The notes below the pieces were generated by a model. The model saw nothing but the letters and a program-made list of their open reading frames with translations, did no database searches and had not been told where the DNA came from. Shown here in pieces: positions 1,265 to 41,129 of a stretch of 64,000 nt of DNA. The DNA lies in NCBI GenBank assembly GCA_012798235.1, contig JAAZNP010000004.1, forward strand, positions 2,171 to 66,170, written 5' to 3'. The DNA is from Parcubacteria group bacterium (lineage in GTDB: Bacteria; Patescibacteriota; Minisyncoccia; UBA6257). Numbering within the stretch: the stretch's first letter is position 1; each line of letters begins with the position of its first letter. The position numbers and the translations under genes are program-made.

Positions 1265-3356
1265 GATTATTGTTACTTTAATTATTTTTGCCTTAATTTA
1301 TGGTTTTTTAGGTCAGCATATTCCTTGGCAATATGTTTTAAAAAATACTATTATTTCTGGTGGCGATACTGGTTCGCATAATTATGTTGCTTGGTATAGT
1401 CATGAAATTTTCCCAAAACTAAAATGGTGGTCACCCGATTGGTATGCTGGTTTCCCGTTTTTGTATTTTTATCCCCCTTTTCTTTATTATCTGACTGATA
1501 TTTTGAGCGCGCTTATTCCATTTAATATCGCTTTTAAATTAATTACTTTATTAGGCACTTTTTTGTTACCCTTGGCTATTTATTTATTTTTAAAATTATT
1601 AAAATTCGAGTTTCCTATTCCTGCAATTGGTTCTCTTTTTAGCCTTGGCTTGCTGTTTTTAGAAAAATTCTCTATCTACGGCGCTAATTTGCCTAGCACT
1701 TTAGCTGGCGAATTTTCTTATGCTTTTTGTTTTGCTTTATTTTTTATTTTTTTTGGTTTTCTGTATCGAGATTTAAAGAATAATAAAGTTTCAGGTATTC
1801 CTATTTTATTTTTAGCTTTAATGGCTATTAGCCATCCTTTTGCAGTTATTGTTAGTGTTTTAGTAGCCGTGCTTCTTTTAATTTCATCTCTAATAACACG
1901 AAAATTTAAAAGTATTTTCTCGAAAATACTCATTACTTATGGTTTGGGGTTTGGTTTAAGTGCTTTTTGGTCTTTGCCCTTTTTATTTCTTTTAGGTTAT
2001 ACCTCAAAAATGACCTGGACTAAAGTAATTAATTTTAAGGAGATGTTTCCTCCGACTTTATATCCCTTATTAATTATTGCAATTATTGGTTTAATCTATG
2101 GTTTTTGGAAAAGAAAAAAGGAAATCCTTTATGTGCTATTAATCATTATTGCCAGCACTATCCCTTATTTTCTACTTAATCATTCGAGTATTTGGAATAC
2201 TCGCTTTTTACCTTTTGTTATTATCGGCTATATTATTTTGGCTGCGATGGGATTAGGCTTTTTTATTAACGATTTTAGTAATCTTGTTTTTCGTTTCAAA
2301 AATTCAGAAAAAAAATTAATTTTTAATTATTTGTTAAGGTCATTAATCACGATTGCCTTTGCCAGTATTTTTATTTTTGTTTATTTACCAAAAACTATTA
2401 CCTACATTGATTTTTGGATGGAATGGAATTATAAAGGGTTTGAATCAAAAAATGAATGGTCAAAATTAGTGGCATTAAGCGATTATCTTAAAGCGCTGCC
2501 TTATGGACGCGTGATGTGGGAGTACCGTGGCGATTATGATAAATTTGGCACTCCCCGGGTGCTAGAAAATTTGCCTATTTGGACAGGAAAGCCAACTTTT
2601 GAAGGGTTATTAATTGAATCATCAATTTCTGGTTATTTTCATTTTATTAATCAAGCAGAAACCACTAAAACGCCAACAGCAGCAATTGCGGGGATGAAAT
2701 ATCCTTCTTTTAATTTTGAAAATGGCGTCAAACACATGCAATTATTCGGAGCTAATTATTTTGTTGCTTATACTCAAGATATTAAAAATTTAGCTGATAA
2801 ATATTTAATCCATCTTCGAGATGTAAATGATTTTTCTATTTATGAAGTTCCTCATTCGGAATTGGTGACTGTTGTTCCAGATATTAATTTAATAAAAAAA
2901 CAAAAAGGATGGCTGGATCAATCCATTGAGTGGTATAAGGCAATGGATTTTTCTAACTTTTTAGTTTTCTATCAAAATAATAAGGAGAAAAACGAAATTG
3001 ATAATACATTAAAACCCAGCTTATTAGTAAAGCAGCCAATTATGATAAAAGAAATAAAAAAAGATTCTCTAACATTTACTACCGAGAATCTTTATCAACC
3101 GCATTTGGTGAAAATAACTTATTTCCCTGGTTGGAAAGCTACGGGTGCTAAAGGGCCTTATTTGATCAGTCCTTCTTTTATGATGGTGATTCCAACGCAG
3201 CAAGAAGTTACTTTAAAATTTGGCTATAATTGCTGGGATAAAATAGGAATGGGATTATCAATTATTAGCGCGATTACTGTTGTTTTTCTAATAATTCGAA
3301 AACCTTCTCGTTTCTTATCAATCCCGAAGCGAAAATTTTTAACTCCTCAAGATTGA
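1242..3356 (+). CDS. Large polytopic membrane protein, putative GT-C type glycosyltransferase (mannosyl/oligosaccharyl-transferase-like)
   Basis: 704 aa. At least 12 predicted TM helices are followed by a ~300-aa soluble C-terminal domain. It overlaps the GT2 stop by 23 nt, consistent with translational coupling. A polyprenol-P-sugar synthase plus GT-C pairing is inferred. Confidence 0.5.
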   Translation: MKKTLFIEIIVTLIIFALIYGFLGQHIPWQYVLKNTIISGGDTGSHNYVAWYSHEIFPKLKWWSPDWYAGFPFLYFYPPFLYYLTDILSALIPFNIAFKLITLLGTFLLPLAIYLFLKLLKFEFPIPAIGSLFSLGLLFLEKFSIYGANLPSTLAGEFSYAFCFALFFIFFGFLYRDLKNNKVSGIPILFLALMAISHPFAVIVSVLVAVLLLISSLITRKFKSIFSKILITYGLGFGLSAFWSLPFLFLLGYTSKMTWTKVINFKEMFPPTLYPLLIIAIIGLIYGFWKRKKEILYVLLIIIASTIPYFLLNHSSIWNTRFLPFVIIGYIILAAMGLGFFINDFSNLVFRFKNSEKKLIFNYLLRSLITIAFASIFIFVYLPKTITYIDFWMEWNYKGFESKNEWSKLVALSDYLKALPYGRVMWEYRGDYDKFGTPRVLENLPIWTGKPTFEGLLIESSISGYFHFINQAETTKTPTAAIAGMKYPSFNFENGVKHMQLFGANYFVAYTQDIKNLADKYLIHLRDVNDFSIYEVPHSELVTVVPDINLIKKQKGWLDQSIEWYKAMDFSNFLVFYQNNKEKNEIDNTLKPSLLVKQPIMIKEIKKDSLTFTTENLYQPHLVKITYFPGWKATGAKGPYLISPSFMMVIPTQQEVTLKFGYNCWDKIGMGLSIISAITVVFLIIRKPSRFLSIPKRKFLTPQD

Positions 3357-4302
3357 TTTTATTTTTGAGCTCAGGGTCAGGTAATTGATTTAAAATTTCG
3401 TTGATTTTTTTCTCGATTTCTTCTTCGGTAATTTCTATTTTTTCTTGTTCGGCAATTTCTTTTAAAACAAGAGCCATTTTAACTCTTTTTTCAGCCAGAG
3501 GGAGAAAATCTTTTAATAGCTCCTCTTCTGTTTTTTTAATTTGCTTTAAATATTCTTCAAAAGGAAGCTGCATTTCAGCCAAGCGAATTTTAAGTTCCTC
3601 CATCATTTTTGATTTTTCAGCCTCAATTAAAATATCCGGTATTTCTTCTTTGATTTGTTTTATGATTTCTTCCATAACCTCGAGGCGCCAGCGTTCTTTT
3701 TCTTTTTCTTGTTTTTCGATGGTTAATCCTTCTTTAATATTTTTCTTTAATTCTTCAAGCGTTTGGAAATTACCTAAAGATTGAGCAAAAACATCGTCTA
3801 AGGGAGGAACTATTTTAGTATTAGTTTTAGGGTCAGTAGAAGCGCGAGTTTTTTGAAGCCAAGTTAAAGCCTCAGTTACTTCTTCATCAGTTACCGTTAT
3901 AGGTTGGCGGCTCGTTTGTTTTCCTTGAGCAACTTGGCGATAATCGGTTAAGGTCAAATGGGGCATCACGGAAATTTCTAGTTTTAATTCCACTAAAGAA
4001 TTAGGTATTAATTTAGTAATCGAGATTAAGGGTTGACCCAAAGGTTCAATGTTATTATCGCTAATAATTTGGGAATAAAATTTTTCTAAAGCAAAGAGGG
4101 ACAGCTTTTCATAAAGTTCTATTGGCGAAACATTGCTTTCAACTAAATCTAAAGGAGCCTTGCCCTGACGAAATCCTTTTAAAGTTAAATTTTGACCCAG
4201 TTCTTCAAGGGCTTTATTTTTAAAAGGCAAAAGCTCATTGTTATCAAATGTAACAATAATTTCTACCTTAGATTTTGCTAAAGATTTAATCTTGCTCTTC
4301 AT
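3274..4302 (-). CDS. tig: Trigger factor (short form)
   Basis: The N-terminal ribosome-binding domain with the FRQGKAP motif is present, and it sits upstream of nusA. Its 3' end overlaps the convergent GT-C gene by ~83 nt. Confidence 0.75.
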   Translation of the reverse strand: MKSKIKSLAKSKVEIIVTFDNNELLPFKNKALEELGQNLTLKGFRQGKAPLDLVESNVSPIELYEKLSLFALEKFYSQIISDNNIEPLGQPLISITKLIPNSLVELKLEISVMPHLTLTDYRQVAQGKQTSRQPITVTDEEVTEALTWLQKTRASTDPKTNTKIVPPLDDVFAQSLGNFQTLEELKKNIKEGLTIEKQEKEKERWRLEVMEEIIKQIKEEIPDILIEAEKSKMMEELKIRLAEMQLPFEEYLKQIKKTEEELLKDFLPLAEKRVKMALVLKEIAEQEKIEITEEEIEKKINEILNQLPDPELKNKINLEELKIFASGLIRNEKVFELLEKQQ

Positions 4303-6320: not shown

Positions 6321-7439
6321 AGTTAAAATTCTAGGAAGCCAAGGGTTAATTCGAGTGACGATTTCGTAATTTATAGTGTTAGCCCAAGAAGCTAAATCAT
6401 TAGCACTGATTATTTGATTTTTGCTTTTACCGATTAAAATTACTTTATCACCAACTTTAGCATTAGGTACTTTAGTAATATCCACCATTGATAAATTCAT
6501 ACAGATTCTACCTCGAATCGGGCATTTTTTGCCCTTGATAATTACCTGAGCTCGATTAGAAAAGAGTCGATCATAACCATCCCAATAACCAACCGGAATA
6601 ATTGCTAAATTAGTTTTCTTTTTAGTAGTATATGTACCGCCATAACCAATTTTTGTTTTTGGCGGCAAATCTTTTATTTGAAGAATTGTCGTATACCAAA
6701 ATAGAGCTGGTTTTAAATTAATTCTTTGGGCAATTTTTTCATTATCATATAAACCATACAGACCAATTCCTAATCTGATGCCATTTAGAAGGGACTCTTT
6801 ATAAAGAACACTGCTAGCAGTGCAAGCAAAATGCTTTAAGGGGATATGAATTTTCTGACTTTCAAGTTGTTTTATCAGGTTTTTAAATTTTTTTAATTGA
6901 TAATAGGTATATTGGGGATTATCCTCACTAGAAGCAAAATGGCTCCAAATACCTTCTAAAATAAGATTTTGATAAGGTTTTAATTTTTCAATAAACGATA
7001 GGGTATCTTGGGGCATAATTCCGGTTCGAGAAGCGCCAGTGTCAATTTCTAAATGTATCTTGACAGTTTTATTTAAATGTTTCGCAATATCATTAAGAAT
7101 TTGTGCTTGTTGAAGATCGTAAAGAGCAAAAATAACTTTATTTTTGATAGCTTTTTTTAATAAGTTCCTATCTAATTCGTAAAAACTTAAGACAAAAATT
7201 GGTTTTTTAATTTTAAAATCAATAAGTTTTAAAGCTTCTTCTAAGCTCACGACGCAAATACGATCAACGTCCTTGTTTTTGTCACAAATTTGAGCCACTT
7301 CGAAAAAACCATGGCCATAGGCATTAGATTTAATTACCGACATAAGCAATTTATCAGGACCAATTAATTTCCGAAATTGGCTGATATTGTAATTAATGGC
7401 TGACTTATTAATTTCTAACCAAGTTAATGGTTTGTTCAT
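6318..7439 (-). CDS. alr: Alanine racemase
   Basis: The PLP-binding motif VIKSNAYGHG is present near the N-terminus. 373 aa, with the typical two-domain length. Confidence 0.9.
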   Translation of the reverse strand: MNKPLTWLEINKSAINYNISQFRKLIGPDKLLMSVIKSNAYGHGFFEVAQICDKNKDVDRICVVSLEEALKLIDFKIKKPIFVLSFYELDRNLLKKAIKNKVIFALYDLQQAQILNDIAKHLNKTVKIHLEIDTGASRTGIMPQDTLSFIEKLKPYQNLILEGIWSHFASSEDNPQYTYYQLKKFKNLIKQLESQKIHIPLKHFACTASSVLYKESLLNGIRLGIGLYGLYDNEKIAQRINLKPALFWYTTILQIKDLPPKTKIGYGGTYTTKKKTNLAIIPVGYWDGYDRLFSNRAQVIIKGKKCPIRGRICMNLSMVDITKVPNAKVGDKVILIGKSKNQIISANDLASWANTINYEIVTRINPWLPRILT

Positions 7440-7466
7440 AGATTAAATTTATAAATATAAAGGGAG

Positions 7467-7537
7467 TGGACTCAGCGAGAATCGAACTCGCATCTCCGCA
7501 ATGCGAATGCGGTGTATTACCATTATACTATGAGCCC
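7467..7537 (-). tRNA. tRNA-Ala (anticodon CGC), no encoded CCA
   Basis: Hand-folded cloverleaf. The acceptor is GGGCTCA/TGAGTCC with G3:U70. The anticodon loop is TTCGCAT and the T-loop is TTCGATT. Confidence 0.7.
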
Positions 7538-7583
7538 ATGTTTTATAAGAAGTATAATTGATTTTATTCTTTTCTTCAATCTC

Positions 7584-7611
7584 TTGACTTTTATTTTTAT
7601 AAGAGTATAAT
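7584..7611 (+). promoter_or_regulatory. Sigma70-like promoter for the arsR redox operon (TTGACT -35 at 7584-7589; TATAAT -10 at 7606-7611)
   Basis: ttgact-N16-tataat. It lies ~35 nt upstream of the arsR start at 7646. Confidence 0.65.
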
Positions 7612-7614
7612 CTA

Positions 7615-7638
7615 ATATATCAATGTAAATTGATATAT
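7615..7638. promoter_or_regulatory. Perfect 24-bp palindrome ATATATCAATgtaaATTGATATAT, candidate ArsR/SmtB operator
   Basis: 10-4-10 inverted repeat immediately downstream of the -10 and 8 nt before the arsR ATG. ArsR-family repressors classically bind 12-2-12-type imperfect inverted repeats overlapping their own promoters. Confidence 0.6.
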
Positions 7639-7645
7639 TATTTCA

Positions 7646-7942
7646 ATGAAAAAACACAAAAACTTACTATCTTTAAATGAACATCAACTTTTAGATTTTT
7701 TGAAAATCATTAGCGATGAGGAGCGTTTTAAAATTATTCATTTGCTTCGTCAAAAATCTTATTGCGTTTGCGAACTAAGCCAGTTATTAGATTTACCTCA
7801 GAATTTAATTTCTTATCATTTAAAAGTTTTAAAAGATTTTGGAATAATAAATTTAAAGAAAAATGGTCGCAAGAATTTCTATTCCATAAATATTAAAATT
7901 CTTTCTTCTCTTTGCCACATTTTAAACAAAAATTTAACCTAA
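7646..7942 (+). CDS. ArsR/SmtB family metalloregulatory transcriptional repressor
   Basis: Winged HTH, LRQKSYCVCELSQLLDLPQNLISYHLKVLKDFGII, with the CVC metal/redox-sensing motif in helix 3. Confidence 0.85.
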   Translation: MKKHKNLLSLNEHQLLDFLKIISDEERFKIIHLLRQKSYCVCELSQLLDLPQNLISYHLKVLKDFGIINLKKNGRKNFYSINIKILSSLCHILNKNLT

Positions 7943-7950
7943 TTAAAACT

Positions 7951-8205
7951 ATGACGATCAAAATTTTGGGTTCTGGTTGCCCTAACTGCCAGTTATTAGA
8001 GGCACAAACTAAAAAAGCCGTGGAGGAATTAGGATTAAAAGATATTCCAATCGAGCATGTTTATGATATTGATAAAATCATTGAAATGGGTATTGCTTTT
8101 ACTCCAGCTTTAGTAATTAATGATGAAATAAAACTCATGGGTAAGATTCCTTCCGTAGAAGAGTTAAAAGCATTAATTCAAGAATCATTAAAAAATAACA
8201 AATAA
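7951..8205 (+). CDS. Thioredoxin-fold redox-active disulfide protein (small Trx-like, CPNC)
   Basis: MTIKILGSGCPNCQ... ~85 aa. The family is commonly found next to ArsR and COG0701 permeases. The start is assigned to the internal ATG at 7951 rather than the listed 7912. Confidence 0.75.
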   Translation: MTIKILGSGCPNCQLLEAQTKKAVEELGLKDIPIEHVYDIDKIIEMGIAFTPALVINDEIKLMGKIPSVEELKALIQESLKNNK

Positions 8206-8217
8206 AAACTGAAAAAT

Positions 8218-9261
8218 ATGAGAAGATTAACCTTCGGTATTATTTTAATTGTATTAATTTTAGGAATTTTAGTGAGTTATGAGTGGTATGGCGCTTTTAA
8301 AAAATCCCATTTAATTGAGATGGGCATTTATTCTAAAGAACCGTTTCCTATCACCTCAGGCACTCCTTGGTATTTAATTCCCTTTTATACTTTATTATCT
8401 TATTTACAAAAAGCCTGGTTTTGTTTAGGTATGGCTTTTTTAATTGCTGGCGCCGTACAAACTTTTATTCCCAAAGAATTAATCATTAAACATTTAGGCA
8501 AAAGAAGCGCTAAAGCTTATTTAATGGCTGCTTTCGGCGGACCCTTACTTTCAGTTTGCTCTTGCTCGATTATTCCTTTATTTGCTGCCATTAAAAAAAG
8601 AGGCGCTGGTTTAGGACCAGCTATTACTTTTCTTTTAGCCACCCCAGCGATTAATCCAGCAGCGATTATTTTAACTTTTAGTCTATTAAACTGGAAATTT
8701 GTGGCAGGAAGAATTATTCTAGCTTTATCAGCTGCAATTATTACTGGTTTAATTTTAGAAAAAATTTGGGGCCAAGAAGACAATGCCCAATTATCTTCTT
8801 TGAATGTTGAATACCAACATATTCCTTTGAATTTAAAGAAAGATCTAATAGATTGGCTTAAAAATGTTTGGGATTTTATTAAAAAAATTCTTCCTTTAGT
8901 TCTTTTGGGTATTTTTATTATTGGAATAATAAAGATCTTTTTGACCACTGAAGTTATTGGCAAATATTTAGGACCAGGATTATGGCAAACTGCTTTAGCT
9001 TCTATTTTAGGGGTAGTGATGTATACCCCAACCTTAGTAGAGATTCCTTTTATTAGAGAACTATTAGGTTTAGGCATGGGCACTGGTCCAGCTTTAGCCT
9101 TTCTTCTAACTGGTCCAGCTTTAAGCTTGCCTTCCATGCTTGGCATTTCTAAAGTTATTGGCTGGAAAAAGGTTTTAAATTATGCTTTGATGATGTGGAT
9201 TTTAGGTATTATTGGTGGTTTGATTTTTAATTATTTTGTTCCTGTGATACACTTATTATAA
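8218..9261 (+). CDS. COG0701/ArsP-like permease (two-Cys CSCS motif)
   Basis: 347 aa polytopic membrane protein carrying the SVCSCSIIPL motif characteristic of the YraQ/ArsP permease family. Confidence 0.75.
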   Translation: MRRLTFGIILIVLILGILVSYEWYGAFKKSHLIEMGIYSKEPFPITSGTPWYLIPFYTLLSYLQKAWFCLGMAFLIAGAVQTFIPKELIIKHLGKRSAKAYLMAAFGGPLLSVCSCSIIPLFAAIKKRGAGLGPAITFLLATPAINPAAIILTFSLLNWKFVAGRIILALSAAIITGLILEKIWGQEDNAQLSSLNVEYQHIPLNLKKDLIDWLKNVWDFIKKILPLVLLGIFIIGIIKIFLTTEVIGKYLGPGLWQTALASILGVVMYTPTLVEIPFIRELLGLGMGTGPALAFLLTGPALSLPSMLGISKVIGWKKVLNYALMMWILGIIGGLIFNYFVPVIHLL

Positions 9262-9265
9262 ATAC

Positions 9266-9517
9266 ATGAATAATAATTTAATTAAAATTTATTCTTCGCC
9301 AGATTGTCCTTATTGCTATACCGTAAAAGATTATCTTAATCAAAAAGGGATTAATTTTGAAGAAATTGATTTATATGAAGAGCCAGAGAAAAGAAAAGAA
9401 ATGGAAGAAATTTCTCATCAAAAGAACATTCCAGTTTTAGTCATTAATAATGAAGTAGTTGTGGGTTGGAATAAAGAAAAAATTGATGAACTTTTAAAGA
9501 AATATGGATTTATATGA
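9266..9517 (+). CDS. Glutaredoxin/NrdH-like protein (CPYC)
   Basis: The sequence YSSPDCPYCYTVKDYL is present. 83 aa. Confidence 0.8.
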   Translation: MNNNLIKIYSSPDCPYCYTVKDYLNQKGINFEEIDLYEEPEKRKEMEEISHQKNIPVLVINNEVVVGWNKEKIDELLKKYGFI

Positions 9518-10424
9518 TCTAATTATTATTGGCGCTGGACCAGCAGGAATTACTGCTGGTATTTATGCTGCGCGCAAAAAGATTAAAACTCTTTTAATTA
9601 CCAAAGATTTTACTGGCCAAGTTGGTTTATCTTGGAAAATAGAAAATTATCCTGGTTTTAAACAAATTAGTGGTCTAAAGTTAATGGAAAATTTGAAAAA
9701 TCATTTAAAAGAATACGAAATTGAAATCAAAAATTTTGAAGAAGTAAAACAAATTGTAAAAGATAATAATTACTTTCAAACTATTACTAATGAAAATAAA
9801 TATTTAGCAAGAACATTAATTATTGCCACTGGTGCTTTACCTAAAAAATTAGCGATAAAAAACGAAAAAAAATTTCTTGGCCACGGCTTATCTTATTGTT
9901 TAACTTGCGATGAAAAAGCTTTTGAAGGAAAAATTGTGGCAGTGATTGGCGGTGGTAATGCTGGCGCCGAAGCTGCTCTAGAATTACAAAAATTTTGTCC
10001 CAAAATTTATCTTTTAGAATATTTAGAAAATTTAACTGGTGATGAAATTTTGAAAGAAGAAGTGTTAAATAGTCCCTCGATTACAGTTATTACTAATGCT
10101 CAAGTATTAAGTTTTGAGGGTGAGAAAGAATTAGAAAAAATTATTTTTAAAGACAGAAAAACAAATAAAGAAAAAGAAATTTTAATTAATGGCTGCTTTG
10201 TTGAAATTGGAACAAAATCAAATACCGAATTTTTAGAAGGGTTAGTAGAATTAAATGAGAAAAAAGAAATCATCGTTGATCCTAAAACAATGGTAACCTC
10301 AGTAAAAGGAATTTTTGCTGCTGGCGATGTTGGTAATTTTAATCAAAAACAAATTATTCTTGCCTGTGGTCAGGGCGCTTTAGCAGCTTTATCAGCTTAT
10401 CAATATTTAAAAACATTAAAATAG
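9504..10424 (+). CDS. trxB: Thioredoxin-disulfide reductase
   Basis: The FAD motif GAGPAG, the redox-active CLTCD (CxxC) and the NADPH-binding motif GGGNAG are all present. It overlaps grx by 14 nt. Confidence 0.85.
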   Translation: MDLYDLIIIGAGPAGITAGIYAARKKIKTLLITKDFTGQVGLSWKIENYPGFKQISGLKLMENLKNHLKEYEIEIKNFEEVKQIVKDNNYFQTITNENKYLARTLIIATGALPKKLAIKNEKKFLGHGLSYCLTCDEKAFEGKIVAVIGGGNAGAEAALELQKFCPKIYLLEYLENLTGDEILKEEVLNSPSITVITNAQVLSFEGEKELEKIIFKDRKTNKEKEILINGCFVEIGTKSNTEFLEGLVELNEKKEIIVDPKTMVTSVKGIFAAGDVGNFNQKQIILACGQGALAALSAYQYLKTLK

Positions 10425-10428
10425 AAGT

Positions 10429-12024
10429 ATGATTAATAAAAACAAAATTTTGGGCTTATTTTTAGTAATTACTTTAATTCTTTCGTTTTTCTCTTTTTAT
10501 TCATCTAGTAGAGCTCAAGAAAAAGAAGTTAATTTGTATTTTTTCTGGGGTCAAGGTTGTCCTCATTGTGCTCACGAGAAGCCATTTCTTGAATCATTAA
10601 AATCAAAATATCCTCAGTTAAAAATTTATGATTTTGAAGTTTGGTATAACCAGAAAAACAGAGATTTATTAATTGAGGTAGGAAAAAAACTAAAAATAGA
10701 TATTAGTGGCGTTCCTTTAACAATTATAAATGATCAGCCGATTATCGGTTATTATGATGATACTACCACCGGCAAACAAATCGAAGATTTAATAATTAAA
10801 TGTCTAAATAGCTCTTGTAAGGATTCGGTTAGAGAAATTGTTTTTAAAAATTTAACCACCACTACTAAAAAAGAAACTCCTTCAACCACTACTACCACTA
10901 CTATCTCTCAAAAAGAAATTAAAGCCTACCTTTTTTGGGCCGAAGGTTGTCCCTTATGCTCTGCTGAAAAGACTTTTTTAAATCAACTTAAAGAAGAATA
11001 TTCGAATTTAAATATTACCTATTTGAATGTTTCTAAAAATAACAATAATGATATTTTAAAACAAACAGTTGAAGAACTGAATATTGAAAATCCCAGTTTG
11101 CCATTATTAATAATCGGAGAAAAAACAATAATTGGGTGGCGCGATCAAGATACATCCGGCAAAGCAATACGCGATGCCATTAATTGTTATTTAGAAAATG
11201 AATGTCCTGACTTAGTTGGTCAAGTTTTAACTCGCTTTAATACTTTTGGTCAATTTACCAAAGATAAACCTTTGCCAGAAAAAATCAAAATTCCTTTAAT
11301 TGGAGACATAGAAACTAAAAATCTTTCCTTGCCGGCTTTAGCAATTATTATTGGTGGACTTGATGGTTTTAATCCTTGTGCGATGTGGGTGCTGATTTTC
11401 TTAATTACCTTACTTTTGAAAATGCAAGATCGCAAAAGAATGTGGATTTTAGGCTCTACTTTTATCGCTACCTCATCTGCTGTTTATTTTCTTTTTATGA
11501 ATGCTTGGCTTAATTTAATCCTCTGTTTAGGATTTATTTTTTGGATTAGGTTAGTGGTTGGGATCGTAGCTTTAGGTAGCGGTGTTTATAATTTGAGAGA
11601 TTATTTCACTAATCAGGAAGCTGCTTGTAAAGTAACTGATGCGAAACAAAAGAAAACGACCATGGATAAAATGAAAGATATTGTCCATCGCCGATCTTTC
11701 TTATTAGCTTTAATTGGTATTATTCTTTTAGCTGCTTCTATAAATTTAATCGAATTAATTTGTTCTGCTGGTTTTCCGGTGATTTTCACCCAATTATTGG
11801 CCTTGAGTAATTTAGCTAAATGGCAATATTATCTTTATATGCTTTTATACATTTTTGTCTTTATGCTTGATGATTTGATTGTTTTTATTGGCGCGATGAT
11901 TACTTTAAGAGTTACGGGTATTACTAATAAATATTCTCGCTTGTCTCATTTAATTGGTGGCATTTTGATGCTTTTAATTGGTTTGCTTTTGATCTTTAAG
12001 CCAGAATTATTGATGTTTGGCTAA
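10429..12024 (+). CDS. DsbD/CcdA-like thiol:disulfide interchange membrane protein with two N-terminal extracytoplasmic thioredoxin-like domains (CPHC, CPLC)
   Basis: A signal/TM segment is followed by two Trx-like modules separated by a Thr-rich linker. Downstream is a CcdA-like TM domain (GGLDGFNPCAMWVL). Confidence 0.75.
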   Translation: MINKNKILGLFLVITLILSFFSFYSSSRAQEKEVNLYFFWGQGCPHCAHEKPFLESLKSKYPQLKIYDFEVWYNQKNRDLLIEVGKKLKIDISGVPLTIINDQPIIGYYDDTTTGKQIEDLIIKCLNSSCKDSVREIVFKNLTTTTKKETPSTTTTTTISQKEIKAYLFWAEGCPLCSAEKTFLNQLKEEYSNLNITYLNVSKNNNNDILKQTVEELNIENPSLPLLIIGEKTIIGWRDQDTSGKAIRDAINCYLENECPDLVGQVLTRFNTFGQFTKDKPLPEKIKIPLIGDIETKNLSLPALAIIIGGLDGFNPCAMWVLIFLITLLLKMQDRKRMWILGSTFIATSSAVYFLFMNAWLNLILCLGFIFWIRLVVGIVALGSGVYNLRDYFTNQEAACKVTDAKQKKTTMDKMKDIVHRRSFLLALIGIILLAASINLIELICSAGFPVIFTQLLALSNLAKWQYYLYMLLYIFVFMLDDLIVFIGAMITLRVTGITNKYSRLSHLIGGILMLLIGLLLIFKPELLMFG

Positions 12025-12046
12025 GTCCCACTAATTGTTTTTTAAT

Positions 12047-12077
12047 TTAAAACCGCGGTAAAAAACCGCAGTTTTAA
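12047..12077 (+). terminator. Rho-independent terminator hairpin after the DsbD-like gene
   Basis: aaaaccgcggtaaaaaaccgcagtttt stem-loop with a trailing T-run. Confidence 0.55.
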
Positions 12078-12171
12078 ATTAAAAAACTTGAAAATAAAAA
12101 TAAGAGGAGTATTATGAATATATATTCATAAAGGTCGGAAAGATTAAAATAAATAATTTAAAATTACTACT

Positions 12172-12387
12172 ATGCCAAGATTTGATGGAACCGGCCCTAT
12201 GGGTTTAGGGCCAAGAACTGGTCGTGGCTTAGGTCCTTGTGGAAGAGGTTATGGTTATCGTCGCTTTGCTTCTCCTAAAAATGAAGCTGCTGCTTTAGAA
12301 GATGAGATTCACACATTAGAAGAAGAATTAAAAGCTTTAAAAGAAGAGAAAGCAGCTTTAGACAAGGAACTAAAGGACCAAAAATAA
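12172..12387 (+). CDS. Small DUF5320-like protein (Gly/Pro-rich N-terminus with a single Cys, followed by a coiled coil)
   Basis: MPRFDGTGPMGLGPRTGRGLGPCGRGYG... followed by a heptad-rich EELKALKEEK tail. A 5-codon uORF (MNIYS) preceded by an AAGAGGAG RBS lies upstream at ~12104-12121. Confidence 0.6.
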   Translation: MPRFDGTGPMGLGPRTGRGLGPCGRGYGYRRFASPKNEAAALEDEIHTLEEELKALKEEKAALDKELKDQK

Positions 12388-12394
12388 AAATTAA

Positions 12395-12424
12395 AAGATC
12401 TCTTTTCAACAAAGAGGTCTTTTA
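12395..12424 (+). terminator. Rho-independent terminator
   Basis: aaaagatctctttTCAACaaagaggtctttt hairpin plus T-run. Confidence 0.55.
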
Positions 12425-12453
12425 ATATAATAATAAATTAATACATACAATAT

Positions 12454-12741
12454 ATGCCGAGACCAAGAATGCATCGTAGGATAAGGTGTCGCCTAAATGC
12501 TTTTTATTTTAAACCTCAGGGAATACCAATGAGGTATTTAGATGTGATAGAATTAACCCTAGAAGAAGCCGAGGCTTTAAGATTAAAAAATCTTTTAGAT
12601 TTAGAGCAGAAAGAAGCCGCTAAAAAAATGAAAGTCTCGCAACCTACCTTTTAAAGGGATTTAACTTCGGCTTATAAAAAAATAGCAGAGGCTTTAATTA
12701 CTGGTAAGGCTATTAAAATTGTTTGCGATGATAATAAATAA
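12454..12741 (+). CDS. DUF134 (UPF0251) DNA-binding protein, interrupted by an in-frame TAA at 12652-12654. The N-terminal 66 codons and a further 28 in-frame codons follow the family consensus.
   Basis: MPRPRMHRRIRCRLNAFYFKPQGIPMRYLDVIELTLEEAEALRLKNLLDLEQKEAAKKMKVSQPTF-TAA-RDLTSAYKKIAEALITGKAIKIV... The family consensus continues ...PTFxRILKSARKKIAxALVxGKAI across exactly this point. Confidence 0.6.
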
Positions 12742-12756
12742 TTAATCACTCAATTT

Positions 12757-13977
12757 ATGGACAATCAAAACGAAATGTTAAAAACTGCTCAGGAATTAAT
12801 TGAAAAAACTGGGCGAAAATTAAATCTTTTTCAAGAGGAAATTGATTTTCTTATTCAGCCGGATAGAGTAATTGAAATTAAGGTGCCGGTAAAAATGGAT
12901 AACGGCGTAATAAAAACTTTTGTTGGCTATCGTTCTCAGCATAATAATGTTTTAGGCCCTTATAAAGGAGGTATTAGATTCCATCAAAATGTTTCACGGG
13001 AGGAAGTGATCGCTCTCTCTACTTTAATGACTTTAAAATGTGCCGCTAATAGTTTACCTTTAGGAGGAGGAAAAGGCGGAGTAATTGTTAATCCAAAAGA
13101 ATTATCCGAAGAAGAATTAGAAAGATTATCAAGAGCTTATGCTAAAGCGATTGCTCCTTTTATTGGAGAAGACGTTGACGTGCCAGCACCTGATGTTAAT
13201 ACTGATGGTAGAATTATGATGTGGATGTTAGATGAATATGAAAAAACAATTGGTAAAAAATCACCCGCTACTTTTACTGGTAAACCAGTTGAATTTGGTG
13301 GTAGTTTAGGCAGAACTGAGGCTACTGGTAGAGGTGGAGTTATTGTCATGGGAAATTTATTAAAAGCTTTAAATAAAGATTATAAAACTATTGCCATTCA
13401 AGGATTAGGGAATGTTGGTTCTTATTTTGCAAAAATAGCATTTGAAAAAGGCTTTAAGATAGTGGCTTTATCTGATTCAAAGGGTGGAATTTATAATGAA
13501 AATGGCTTAAATCCTGATGAGGTAATAAAAATTAAAGAAGAAACTGGTAAAGTTAGTGATTACTCTGATGGTAAAGTTATTACTAACGAAGAATTATTAG
13601 AATTGCCGGTTGATATTTTAGTGCCAGCTGCTTTAGAAAATGTAATTACTAAGGATAATGCTTCAAATATCAAAGCCAAACTTATTATTGAAATGGCTAA
13701 TGGTCCAATTACCGAAGAGACTTATCCAATTTTGGAAGAAAAAGGAATTATTTCTGCGCCTGATATTTTAGCCAATGGCGGTGGCGTAATTGTTTCTTAT
13801 TTTGAATGGTTGCAAAATAGAAAGAATGAAAAATGGACAGAAGAAGAAGTTAATCAGAAATTAGAAGAACAATTAAAAACTGCCTTAAAGGAAATTTTAG
13901 ATATTAGCCAAGAATATAAAGTAAACTTAAAAGAAGCAGCTTTTATTTCTGCTTTAAAGAAAATTACCAAAAAATAA
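12757..13977 (+). CDS. gdhA: Glutamate dehydrogenase (Glu/Leu/Phe/Val dehydrogenase family)
   Basis: GPYKGGIRFH is present, along with the catalytic Lys region GGGKGG and a C-terminal Rossmann GLGNVG. Confidence 0.85.
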   Translation: MDNQNEMLKTAQELIEKTGRKLNLFQEEIDFLIQPDRVIEIKVPVKMDNGVIKTFVGYRSQHNNVLGPYKGGIRFHQNVSREEVIALSTLMTLKCAANSLPLGGGKGGVIVNPKELSEEELERLSRAYAKAIAPFIGEDVDVPAPDVNTDGRIMMWMLDEYEKTIGKKSPATFTGKPVEFGGSLGRTEATGRGGVIVMGNLLKALNKDYKTIAIQGLGNVGSYFAKIAFEKGFKIVALSDSKGGIYNENGLNPDEVIKIKEETGKVSDYSDGKVITNEELLELPVDILVPAALENVITKDNASNIKAKLIIEMANGPITEETYPILEEKGIISAPDILANGGGVIVSYFEWLQNRKNEKWTEEEVNQKLEEQLKTALKEILDISQEYKVNLKEAAFISALKKITKK

Positions 13978-39017: not shown

Positions 39018-41129
39018 ATGAATAAAAACTCACTTTTGCTTTTCCCTGCTTTAATGGTGGGTAGTGTCCTTTTACTTGTTACTGCTTTCTCTTTTTTAAC
39101 AGCAAACCCTTCAACATTAACAGCTTCGATAAATCCACCACCTTCTCCATCTTGTCCTTTTGAAGAAGGATTTACTCCAGCTAATGTTTCTTTAACTTCG
39201 CCCTTAAATTTAAGACAAGAAGCCCTTTTATTAAAGGCTTTTTTAGTTAGAGTAGAAAATTGTCCTGATAGTTATTCTTTAAATACTTGTTTAGGTCTTT
39301 TCCAGGAATATTGCGTGGAGCAAGGTAAATGTTCTAACCATTATTCTTTTGAGAAACCCGCTGTTATTACTTCTGAGATTAAAACATTACTATGCTCCGA
39401 ATGGACTAAACGCTACATTCTGCTTTACCAAAGTTCTAATTGGTCCTATTTACAAAATCTATTCGCCTCTAAAAATACCACAGTTTCTGATTGGTTAAAA
39501 ACTAATTACTCTCAATATGTAAGTTGGAAACAAAGCGTTACTTCTGGAGGTACAACTAGCACTGGAACTGGCACTGGAACTGGCACTGGAACTGGCACTG
39601 GAGGTGGTACTGGCACTGGAGGTGGTACTAGCACTGGAACTGGAGGCGGAGGTACCAGTGGAGGTAGCTCTGGTGGTACTATAACTACCTTTACTCCAGA
39701 GTCTTGTGCTGCTTATGGTCAAGCTATGGGAGTAGGAAATAGTTATTCTTGTCAGTTTGCAGAAAATTGTGGCAGCACTGAAGTTGCTGGCCCTTGCCCT
39801 ATTGGAGGAAAGATGTATTTTTGTTGTCTTACCCACCCTACTAAATGTTCGGATTTTGCCAAACAAGGTTATGCTTGTATTGCGCCTTATTCAGGAATTC
39901 GCGAAAATTGTCAACCTGGTACTCAATTACCAGGGGCGATGTGCAATGCAGAATATCAAGTGGTTTGCTGTAAACCTAAAACAGCAACTAAATGTGTGGC
40001 AGTTACTACTCTTAGTGGATACTGTGGAGGACAACCAAGATATAATAGGGATTGGAAATGTGAGCCAGCGGCACCAGGAGAAAATGATGATGGCTGTGAT
40101 GTAGATCTTATTAACCCTTGTCGAGTGAAATATGGTACTTATTCGGGAATTTGCGATCTCAATTATTGTGTACCTTCTTCTGAATGTAAGGGTTTAATTA
40201 ATAATTTATATGGTTGTCCTGATAGTACGAATGTCTGCTGTAATTATAAAACAGAAGAAATACCAGTAAATCAACTTAATATGTGCGATCATACTTGTGT
40301 TAAACCTTATCCCAATTCTCAATATCCAAATGATATTTGTGGTCCCAACTATTATCAAGTACTTGATAAGAAATGTAGTATAAGTGGTTATATTTGTTGC
40401 GCTCCTAAAAGTACAAATGCTGCTTGCGGTAATGGAATTTTAGAATCAGGCGAAGGATGTGATGATGGTAATACTATTAGTGGCGATGGATGCTCTGGTA
40501 CTTGCCAAATTGAAAATGTTACTCCTGTTTGTGGCAATGGAATTTTAGAGCAAGGCGAAGAATGTGATGATAATAATACTATTAGTGGTGATGGTTGTTC
40601 CTCTTCTTGCAAAAAAGAAAATAAGAGTTCTGCTATTTGCGGAAATGGAAAAGTAGAAGCAGGTGAAGATTGCGACGGTTCAGTTAATAAAACTTGTGCC
40701 GATTACGGATTCAATAGCGGTACGGTTAAGTGCACTAGTTGTAAATACGATATTTCAAATTGTCACAATACGCAGACTACCTGTTGGTATTTAGCATGTG
40801 CAAATGGTATCTGCGTAAGCAAAGAAACTACGGATTGCCCCCATGCTGATGAAGGTGGTTGTACCGGATTAGGTAGTTTATGTGGCCAAGATTATTGTAT
40901 TCAGCATGCTTCTCAAGGTTATGGTTGTAGTAATAATTGCCAACCAGATAGTGAAATCAATGCTATTGGGTGCGAACCACCGCTAAAGTGTTGTAAACCT
41001 GTGGCTTCATGTACCCCTAATTGCGACGATAAAGAATGCGGCGATGATGGTTGTGGTGGTTCTTGTGGTAGTTGTCCCCGCAGTACTCCTAATTGTATAA
41101 ACGGAAGATGCTCAGCGGCTTTTCAATAA
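39018..41129 (+). CDS. Large secreted cysteine-rich protein with a (TG)n low-complexity linker and three Myxococcus-type cysteine-rich repeats
   Basis: A signal peptide is present. The TGTGTGTGTGTGGGTGTGGG linker is encoded by the (ACTGGAACTGGC)n DNA repeat at 39561-39603. Three CGNGxxExGExCDDGNTISGDGCSxxC units span 40425-40650. About 90 Cys in total. Confidence 0.65.
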   Translation: MNKNSLLLFPALMVGSVLLLVTAFSFLTANPSTLTASINPPPSPSCPFEEGFTPANVSLTSPLNLRQEALLLKAFLVRVENCPDSYSLNTCLGLFQEYCVEQGKCSNHYSFEKPAVITSEIKTLLCSEWTKRYILLYQSSNWSYLQNLFASKNTTVSDWLKTNYSQYVSWKQSVTSGGTTSTGTGTGTGTGTGTGGGTGTGGGTSTGTGGGGTSGGSSGGTITTFTPESCAAYGQAMGVGNSYSCQFAENCGSTEVAGPCPIGGKMYFCCLTHPTKCSDFAKQGYACIAPYSGIRENCQPGTQLPGAMCNAEYQVVCCKPKTATKCVAVTTLSGYCGGQPRYNRDWKCEPAAPGENDDGCDVDLINPCRVKYGTYSGICDLNYCVPSSECKGLINNLYGCPDSTNVCCNYKTEEIPVNQLNMCDHTCVKPYPNSQYPNDICGPNYYQVLDKKCSISGYICCAPKSTNAACGNGILESGEGCDDGNTISGDGCSGTCQIENVTPVCGNGILEQGEECDDNNTISGDGCSSSCKKENKSSAICGNGKVEAGEDCDGSVNKTCADYGFNSGTVKCTSCKYDISNCHNTQTTCWYLACANGICVSKETTDCPHADEGGCTGLGSLCGQDYCIQHASQGYGCSNNCQPDSEINAIGCEPPLKCCKPVASCTPNCDDKECGDDGCGGSCGSCPRSTPNCINGRCSAAFQ

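Follow-up and report, generated by a model that had tools for sequence, protein, structure and literature searches.

We suggest that a promoter and six genes at positions 7584-12024 of a 64,000-nucleotide stretch of Parcubacteria group bacterium DNA (contig JAAZNP010000004.1; the whole stretch, 64 kb, is called the window below) form one ArsR-repressed metalloid-stress operon, in which efflux of a thiophilic metalloid is coupled to a thiol-reducing chain that reaches the envelope and would serve thiol repair there. We give this reading a probability of about 0.55. The last gene encodes a 531-residue membrane protein with two thioredoxin domains, for which we coined the name TrxTM. The regulator and the efflux parts are of known kinds, and the noteworthy part is their recurrent coupling to an unannotated membrane thioredoxin family that extends across the Candidate Phyla Radiation (CPR) and DPANN. 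These lineages make up a large part of microbial diversity, are mostly uncultured, lack respiratory chains and quinones, and have many secreted Cys-rich proteins. The locus points to the large TrxTM family (~3100 clusters at 50% identity, no Pfam/NCBIfam model) as a likely membrane link for extracellular thiol-disulfide chemistry, and it offers candidates for the cytoplasmic donor of TrxTM and for its regulator, together with a defined operator sequence and a probable trigger. A protein in the databases that is identical to TrxTM assigns the bacterium to the Parcubacteria/Minisyncoccia of the CPR. The six genes are the following.

7646-7942, + strand: arsR, HTH_5 regulator, 98 amino acids (aa)
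7951-8205, + strand: small thioredoxin-fold protein with CPNC, MTH895/ArsE family, 84 aa
8218-9261, + strand: ArsP_1-family permease (PF03773; here arsP) with a CSCS motif, 347 aa
9266-9517, + strand: glutaredoxin-like protein (grx) with CPYC, Pfam Glutaredoxin, 83 aa
9504-10424, + strand: low-molecular-weight thioredoxin reductase (trxB) with CLTC, Pyr_redox_2 and TIGR01292, 306 aa
10429-12024, + strand: TrxTM, two thioredoxin domains (CPHC, CPLC) and a C-terminal domain of six transmembrane (TM) helices, 531 aa

The genes follow a sigma-70-type promoter on the + strand, with the -35 element TTGACT at 7584-7589, a 16-nt spacer and the -10 element TATAAT at 7606-7611. It matches 11 of the 12 consensus positions and is the top-ranking sigma-70-like site within 7000-13000. 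Promoter-like sites as such are not enriched in this AT-rich DNA (21 observed in 7000-13000, 26.3 expected from shuffles), thus only the quality and the position of this site carry weight. A similar -35/-10 pair stands at the same position in the related loci L003/L006 and L010. The gaps between the six genes are 8, 12, 4, -14 and 4 nt in order, and no terminator was found between them in a check of 7000-13000. An earlier reading of the sequence alone (below, the sequence-only reading) had described six co-oriented, tightly packed genes behind a clear promoter; gaps of -14 to +12 nt and the 11/12 promoter bear this out, and the gene identities that it gave are upheld by the Pfam and NCBIfam domain matches. 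At the upstream side the operon is bounded by a tRNA-Ala gene on the opposite strand. The distance between arsP and grx is 4 nt, with neither a promoter-quality site nor a terminator there; inside arsP there is a weak promoter-like site with 9 of the 12 consensus positions. Two features mark the downstream side.

12055-12069, + strand: weak hairpin resembling a terminator, GCGGTaaaaaACCGC with a T-rich tail behind it, which closes the operon
12088-12115: next promoter-like site 3' of the operon, TTGAAA-16-TATTAT

Between the -10 element and arsR lies a palindrome with the core ATATATCAAT gtaa ATTGATATAT at 7615-7638. The sequence-only reading had placed a perfect 10-4-10 palindrome there; its position stands, but the arms are longer, the full element being a perfect 12-4-12 palindrome, TAATATATCAAT-gtaa-ATTGATATATTA, at 7613-7640. 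It starts 2 nt after the -10 element, ends 5 nt before the arsR ATG (7646) and spans the expected transcription start. It is unique in the window with up to 3 mismatches allowed, and none of 100 dinucleotide shuffles gave a match.

Related loci, labelled here with L numbers, come from two sources: loci encoding proteins that are identical to homologues in the databases, and a one-genome-per-species scan with the permease alignment. The operator arms are kept, with variable 4-nt centre and flanks, in 11 further loci from CPR bacteria and Woesearchaeota: L001, L003/L006, L007, L008, L009, L010, L011, L027, L044 (two sites) and L046. Their sites include the following.

L001: ATATATCAAT-ttaa-ATTGATATAT; its ArsR is 58% identical
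L003/L006: TGATATATCAAT-ttaa-ATTGATATATCA
L007: TATATCAAT-ataa-ATTGATATA; its ArsR is 49% identical
L008: TATATCAA-tgacgg-TTGATATA
L010: ATATATCAAT-attg-ATTGATATAT
L027: ATATATCAA-tgttgg-TTGATAcAT
L046: ATATCAAT-atag-ATTGATAT, preceding an arsR that is uncalled in the source annotation
L009 and L011 (Woesearchaeota): CATATCAAT-N4-ATTGATATG

The operator core ATATCAA-N6-TTGATAT is always directly upstream of an arsR, 19-33 nt away. Its inner part ATCAA-N6-TTGAT is confined to pre-arsR sites across ~430 kb (window and loci), where ~2 chance matches are expected from base composition. The recognition helix varies together with the site. The first group of ArsRs has (P/S)QNL(I/V)S(H/Y)HL, and a second group (L012, L015, L016, L043) combines the helix RTQSTVSIQL with the permuted site ATATTGA(T)-N4-6-(A)TCAATAT. 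The Woesearchaeota of L009/L011 are an exception: their helix, (R/E)(T/S)QSNTSM(Q/H)LA, is nearer to the second group, yet their site is of the first type. Conserved arms, a free spacer, the fixed position over the transcription start and the co-variation of helix and site together argue for the operator of a dimeric repressor. Hence, 7613-7640 is a candidate ArsR operator; the site and its conservation are observed, and from them we infer binding by ArsR. A palindrome lacking conservation upstream of orthologous operons would have spoken against such a role; the arms are conserved before the orthologous arsR genes. No published description of the operator ATATCAA-N6-TTGATAT was found, and the sequence is defined here by comparison alone. 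We also considered whether the palindrome could be a hairpin or terminator of the neighbouring tRNA-Ala gene and ruled this out: that gene is encoded on the opposite strand, the palindrome is AT-only, and what the loci have in common is the arms, not the spacer or the flanks.

The regulator itself, a winged-helix protein of the ArsR/SmtB family, belongs to HTH_5 (PF01022, E=2e-14, 53.5 bits with a cutoff of 22) and matches NF033788 (74.1 bits, cutoff 55). Its thiolate site is the CVC of helix alpha3, Cys40-Val-Cys42, and there is an extra Cys90. Of the 20 ArsRs read that accompany the arsR-thioredoxin-permease trio, 19 have the CxC in alpha3, the exception being CVY in L041. The nearest solved structures are the CadC-type sensors Lmo1102 and pI258 CadC, with the CVC aligned. 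Similarly to R773 ArsR of E. coli and pI258 CadC of S. aureus, the window protein has CxC at the start of alpha3 of an HTH_5 fold, its gene is first in its own operon, and the palindromic operator lies between the -10 element and the start codon. However, unlike them, it lacks the third Cys of R773 and the N-terminal Cys pair of CadC.

The relative L044 connects this type of operator with arsenic. There, two operons stand behind an operator of the same type: arsR-arsE-arsP-arsF-arsG-...-TrxTM and, divergent from it, arsR-acr3. Its Acr3 scores 390 bits with TIGR00832 (cutoff 283), and ArsF and ArsG are above their cutoffs. The recognition helix of the acr3-linked ArsR is SQNLISHHL, that of the TrxTM-operon ArsR in the same locus PQNLASYHL, and that of the window ArsR PQNLISYHL. 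Furthermore, an ArsR-ArsP-ArsE operon is arsenic-induced in Pseudodesulfovibrio mercurii (bioRxiv 10.1101/2022.10.17.512643), and ArsP is a demonstrated exporter of MAs(III) and roxarsone(III) (PMC6205960). Taken together with the CxC site, this makes a trivalent arsenical our best guess for the inducer of the window ArsR; Cd, Pb, Hg and Sb are possible, and a signal of redox nature alone is less likely.

We consider it rather improbable that ArsR senses redox or sulfur stress (disulfide, persulfide, peroxide) through its CxC and governs a general thiol-stress regulon, in which the permease would export a thiol or disulfide compound. ArsR-family sensors of redox and sulfur signals are known, and a redox-responsive ArsR has reportedly been found for Paracoccus ArsH (PMC9137774). 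Every gene product of the operon has redox-active Cys, and models of the BigR and SdpR type give sub-threshold matches to the window ArsR. However, the CVC in alpha3 occupies the positions of As/Cd sensors and not those of BigR/SqrR-type pairs, the best structural relatives are CadC proteins, an operator and helix of the same class control acr3, and ArsE/F/G and a P1B-ATPase occur in relatives.

The next two genes are consistent with an arsenical response. The CPNC protein matches Thioredoxin_3 (Trx3 below; E=3e-23), TIGR00412 'MTH895/ArsE family' (91.6 bits, cutoff 62) and PDB 1ILO (MTH895, E=5e-17), and its gene type adjoins the permease gene in almost all related loci. The permease matches ArsP_1 (PF03773, E=8e-66, 222.6 bits with a cutoff of 32.3) over residues 59-339 and model positions 9-294 of 294. 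Thus it groups with ArsP_1; a grouping with unrelated transporters would have counted against the sequence-only reading. Its membrane motif C114-S115-C116-S117 is invariant in 21 homologues, and no solved structural relative of the permease was found. A Cys-Ser-Cys membrane motif has been described for SaoE and SO_0444 (Cu/Zn exporter); identity with either is ruled out by the scores (NF040736, 139.6 with a cutoff of 325; NF033936, 124 with a cutoff of 300). By their sequences, the first three genes correspond to a module known from (organo)arsenical resistance, made up of ArsR, an ArsE-like thioredoxin and an ArsP-family permease, and the permease is a putative exporter of a trivalent (organo)arsenical or a soft metal. 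The trio had been called recurrent and functionally unresolved. Recurrent it is, but it is in part resolved, as an ArsR/ArsP/ArsE-type module is the one induced by arsenic in P. mercurii and ArsP is characterised.

In known ArsR-ArsP-ArsE operons (C. jejuni ArsP, operon C of P. mercurii ND132, Shewanella ArsEFG), an ArsP_1 permease with Cys-Ser-Cys likewise stands beside a PF13192/TIGR00412 thioredoxin-like protein under ArsR. Of the further genes of ArsEFG-type operons, L044 adds ArsF and ArsG, and L045 has ArsE, ArsF and ArsG near TrxTM. The window operon differs from these operons in that it lacks ArsF, ArsG, ArsC and Acr3, its permease falls outside the named equivalogs, and the module is 68-78% identical between CPR and DPANN. 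The permease shows this identity between the window and metagenome-assembled genomes labelled Woesearchaeota, Altiarchaeota, Aenigmatarchaeota and Methanosarcinales (L009, L011, L012-L016), while the adjacent ArsRs are only 31-38% identical to that of the window. These identities suggest inter-domain horizontal transfer of the module, provided that the bins are uncontaminated. In L003 (5913-6621) and L006 (about 8041-9116), ~1 kb of extra sequence between arsP and grx contains two half-size ArsP_1-like open reading frames (ORFs; 112 and 121 aa), and a similar split pair (159 and 176 aa) is present in L044 at 3009-4015. Such pairs may be a two-piece permease or a product of decay.

The fourth and fifth genes resemble a known reducing pair. 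The CPYC protein matches Pfam Glutaredoxin (E=4e-19, 69 bits, cutoff 22.9) and scores marginally below the cutoff of the YruB-type model TIGR02196 (84.5, cutoff 88.55). The 3' end of its gene overlaps the start of trxB by 14 nt. TrxB matches Pyr_redox_2 (E=8e-44) and TIGR01292 (311.1 bits, under the equivalog cutoff of 343.45); its best PDB matches are thioredoxin reductase 4zn0 (E=3e-65) and also the C-terminal domain of AhpF, and the redox-active CLTC is present. The Grx-like protein is presumed to be the substrate of the adjacent TrxB. Pairs of a Grx-like protein with a thioredoxin reductase reportedly operate in anaerobes, as Cp9/Cp34 in Clostridium pasteurianum and Grx-1/TrxR in Thermotoga maritima. 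In such YruB-type systems, a small CPYC Grx-like gene overlaps a low-molecular-weight thioredoxin reductase gene, as in the window. The difference is that the window pair is followed by a membrane relay protein, not by a peroxiredoxin, and sits behind an ArsR operator. The order Grx-TrxB-TrxTM is kept in L001, L003/L006 and L004/L005.

TrxTM begins with a signal/anchor helix (aa 4-22), followed by thioredoxin domain 1 (aa 34-127) with an invariant WGxGCPHC, a Thr-rich linker, thioredoxin domain 2 (aa 164-257, CPLC), a conserved hairpin (aa 285-295) and a 6-TM core (aa ~300-531). Most members of the family carry only the first thioredoxin domain. Invariance was read from alignment A1 of 43 homologues. 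Two Cys, both mid-membrane, are invariant there, Cys317 (GFNPC) at the predicted break of TM1 and Cys445 (ELxCSxGxP) at the predicted break of TM4. Also invariant are Asp312, Glu442, Asp481-Asp482 and Cys400 of the K/R-rich (cytoplasmic) TM3-TM4 loop, though the homologues of L007, L015 and L016, with 33% identity, lack Cys400. Loops 1, 3 and 5 are K/R-rich, and this positive-inside pattern together with the N-terminal anchor places both thioredoxin domains outside the cell, in agreement with the extracytoplasmic position that the sequence-only reading had given them. The AlphaFold model has a pLDDT (predicted local distance difference test) of 76.6 for the full length; for the TM domain alone, pLDDT is 68.5 and pTM (predicted template modelling score) 0.60.

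The TM domain recruits 3122 clusters at 50% identity (E<=0.001), 757 of them with E<=1e-30, and no Pfam or NCBIfam model was found for it. The window TM domain and three 33%-identical homologues gave no match to DsbD_TM (PF02683) or DsbD_2 (PF13386) at E<=10; the DsbD Pfam models do detect the ArsG neighbours in L044 and L045. The TM-domain profile gave 0 matches in the PDB at E<=10, and a fold search with the full-length model returned thioredoxin-domain matches only. With E. coli DsbD as the tblastn query, no CcdA/DsbD was found in the window and 31 loci, the single match being a thioredoxin gamma-domain in L021. A comparison by hhalign with a nine-sequence DsbD/CcdA alignment, built from plasmid records, found only a weak match in the DsbD beta domain (whole TM domain, P=0.026; TM1-3, P=0.0067; ~50 columns in TM1-TM2 only, probability 2-6%). 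Within it, the Cys of the TrxTM 'GFNPC' is in register with the catalytic Cys of the DsbD TM1 'AFTPC'. No internal 3+3 repeat was detected (hhalign of TM1-3 with TM4-6, E=0.44). A literature search on the TrxTM family in CPR or Patescibacteria returned nothing specific.

The protein had been called DsbD-like. This holds for the architecture, with Cys at the TM1 and TM4 breaks and external thioredoxin domains; membership of the family finds no backing in the Pfam models, the PDB sequences or the fold searches. DsbD, CcdA (PDB 5VKV) and ScsB (PMC3322552) share with TrxTM an adjacent gene for a cytoplasmic thioredoxin-fold donor, one Cys after Pro in TM1 and one before Pro in TM4, both at helix breaks, and outer thioredoxin-fold domains. 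ScsB and cutA-dsbD also share a gene context of metal stress. The odds are slightly in favour of TrxTM working as a relay in the manner of DsbD/CcdA, and we do not file it in that family. Transport of reducing power to the cell surface is the probable function of the family. In the CcdA-Etrx-MsrAB2 system of Streptococcus pneumoniae (PMC3914529), an extracytoplasmic chain of thioredoxin-fold reductases is likewise fed across the membrane for a purpose other than cytochrome c maturation. That system differs in having separate proteins and a true CcdA; no Msr gene is beside TrxTM in the loci examined.

The motif of thioredoxin domain 1 admits electron flow in the opposite direction. CPHC is the DsbA-type (oxidising) active-site motif, and, being invariant in TrxTM, it would fit an oxidase or isomerase for secreted Cys-rich proteins, which would draw electrons inward and substitute for DsbA/DsbB or VKOR in the quinone-less CPR. 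Among the weak profile matches of domain 1 in the PDB are DsbA and proteins of the ScsC type. Several secreted proteins encoded in the window contain 5-12% Cys, and the family is near-ubiquitous in CPR (the 3122 clusters). The acidic residues in the membrane, together with CPHC, also mean that a metal-relay role may come into question. Nevertheless, we regard the oxidase role as unlikely. Directly 5' in 7 of 10 loci are genes for reductants, either TrxB with Grx or a thioredoxin of the cytoplasm. An oxidant partner, of the quinone type or any other, is not seen, and the single Cys in TM1 and in TM4 resemble the reductive relays of CcdA/DsbD and not the CxxC pairs of DsbB/VKOR.

The exact six-gene order occurs only in the closest relatives (L001/L002, L003/L006). 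L004/L005 have a 65%-identical TrxTM behind Grx-TrxB with no ars genes and with their own upstream region, and most ArsR-Trx3-ArsP loci are without Grx, TrxB and TrxTM. Hence, the two halves are separable modules. The sequence-only reading had the trio fused in one operon with a reductive pathway; the arrangement is as described, but it is a clade-specific joining. In the loci of other relatives, the same joining recurs in different forms: of 10 independent loci anchored on TrxTM, 8 have ArsR and metal or arsenical genes no more than 5 kb away from it, in at least 5 gene orders. Two of the eight are L001 and L003 of the window clade, and the remaining ones are these.

L041: ArsR-Trx3-ArsP-Trx-TrxTM
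L043: Trx-TrxTM-ArsR-x-ArsP-Fer4-Trx3, the operator preceding Trx
L044: TrxTM inside an ars island (arsR-arsE-arsP-arsF-arsG-...-TrxTM and arsR-acr3)
L045: ArsR-x-P1B heavy-metal ATPase-Trx-TrxTM-...-ArsE-ArsF-ArsG
L046: operator-arsR-...-Trx-TrxTM
L047: ArsR-Trx3-ArsP-TrxTM-ZIP

Moreover, TrxTM homologues with 33% identity lie close to the trio in L007 and also in the archaeal loci L015 and L016. That ars and reductive modules are joined again and again in CPR and DPANN speaks for a functional connection. The idea that the genes detoxify a thiol-reactive compound or export reducing power, voiced earlier for the window, fits these relatives, where the same genes lie in islands for arsenic and heavy metals, together with ArsE/F/G, Acr3 and a P1B-ATPase.

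An opposing explanation is that two independent units lie side by side with no functional tie, an ArsR-ArsE-ArsP module and a constitutive housekeeping Grx-TrxB-TrxTM unit. The ars-free L004/L005, the many trio loci without the reductive genes, the additional genes, ~1 kb in all, that separate arsP from grx in L003/L006, and the fact that trxB is the sole TrxB-like gene in the window all speak for it. Against it are the 4-nt gap between arsP and grx with neither promoter-quality site nor terminator, the proximity of TrxTM to ArsR in 8 of 10 independent loci with several gene orders, and the ArsR operator directly upstream of the Trx-TrxTM genes themselves in L043 and L046. We take this explanation to have perhaps one chance in five, and prefer the single ArsR-repressed operon.

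A gene for a cytoplasmic thioredoxin fold is directly 5' of TrxTM in 7 of 10 loci, with gaps of about 2-10 nt. This partner is either Grx followed by TrxB, with TrxB adjoining TrxTM, or a nearly invariant 89-aa WCSGC thioredoxin adjoining TrxTM. The gene of the latter ends about 4-8 nt before the TrxTM start in L041, L043, L045 and L046, where TrxTM has the one-domain form. Being almost invariant and always just 5' of a one-domain TrxTM, the WCSGC thioredoxin is likely a dedicated electron donor. The 89-90-aa cytoplasmic thioredoxin starts with MKVLKFGAVWCSGCLVM(K/R)PRW and is encoded at 4727-4996 in L041 and L043, 4724-4993 in L045 and 4724-4996 in L046. Between the operator and Trx-TrxTM of L046, the segment 3983-4700 holds the arsR (N-terminal CC and CVC) and a 95-aa membrane fragment that looks ArsG/DsbD_2-like by eye, both of them uncalled in the source annotation; it may be a decaying ars cluster.

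Step 1: Without inducer, an ArsR dimer would sit on the 12-4-12 palindrome and block RNA polymerase, thus autorepressing all six genes.

Step 2: A thiophilic inducer, most likely As(III) or a trivalent organoarsenical and possibly Sb, Cd, Pb or Hg, would bind at Cys40-x-Cys42 of alpha3 and release ArsR. We suggest this step because the CxC is all but invariant and the same operator and recognition helix control the acr3 operon in a relative.

Step 3: The ArsP-family permease would export the toxicant via the thiols of its membrane CSCS motif. The ArsE-like CPNC thioredoxin would serve the permease, either by keeping these thiols reduced or by handling the arsenical.

Step 4: TrxB would reduce the CPYC Grx-like protein with NAD(P)H, as in the known Grx-like/TrxR pairs of anaerobes. 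The Grx-like protein would pass electrons to the Cys317/Cys445 pair of TrxTM, possibly via Cys400, and from there they would reach the external CPLC and CPHC domains. These relay steps are proposed because of the architecture, the topology and the gene neighbourhood of TrxTM. The external domains would then reduce or isomerise damaged or metalloid-adducted Cys of secreted Cys-rich proteins.

Several observations weigh against this scheme. TrxTM is also found without ars context (L004, L042). The closest solved relatives of ArsR sense Cd/Pb/Zn, and the window ArsR lacks the N-terminal Cys pair present in L007, L008, L010 and L046. The permease scores under the cutoffs of all named equivalogs, and the operon is without ArsC, Acr3, ArsM and ArsF/G. 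The membrane domain of TrxTM has no significant similarity to CcdA or DsbD, its invariant D312, E442, D481 and D482 are atypical of DsbD and may point to the binding of ions or metals, and the CPHC of domain 1 is of the oxidising type. Finally, trxB may be the sole one in a small genome, which would make full repression by ArsR odd; hence, an internal or read-through promoter may exist.

Secreted Cys-rich proteins had been named earlier as the recipients of reducing power, and such ORFs are indeed present in the window, with signal-like N-termini.

39018-41129, + strand: 69 Cys in 703 aa
41151-41549, + strand: 16 Cys in 132 aa
26406-27302, - strand: 20 Cys in 298 aa
25876-26355, - strand: 8 Cys in 159 aa
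15852-18203, - strand: 27 Cys in 783 aa

It is plausible that they are clients of the envelope thiol-disulfide system.

A more far-reaching view can be put forward only tentatively, and we rate it clearly below the operon scheme itself. TrxTM would found a family of its own among transmembrane thiol relays, with no demonstrable homology to DsbD/CcdA, and would be the main surface redox route in CPR/DPANN, whose cells are ultra-small, have no cytochromes and possess a Cys-rich secretome. Within a conserved ArsR regulon it would couple metalloid efflux to the extracytoplasmic repair of arsenical or soft-metal thiol adducts, or alternatively act as a MerP/MerT-like Cys relay that passes the metalloid itself across the membrane. 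In addition, the locus provides a pairing of operator and recognition helix for an ArsR subfamily common to bacteria and archaea, and a putative case of inter-domain transfer of a resistance module. Its components are amenable to study with recombinant proteins and E. coli hosts, with no need to culture the organism itself.

Downstream of the operon there is a second operator-like site, a perfect 16-bp palindrome ATGAATATATATTCAT at 12115-12130, directly after the -10 element of TTGAAA-16-TATTAT. This promoter-like site (12088-12115) precedes a DUF5320 gene (12172-12387) and a short DUF134 gene (12454-12654), and genes for DUF134 are likewise found beside the cluster in L001 and L046. Last, the window contains 18 tRNA genes, which is dense even for a small genome.

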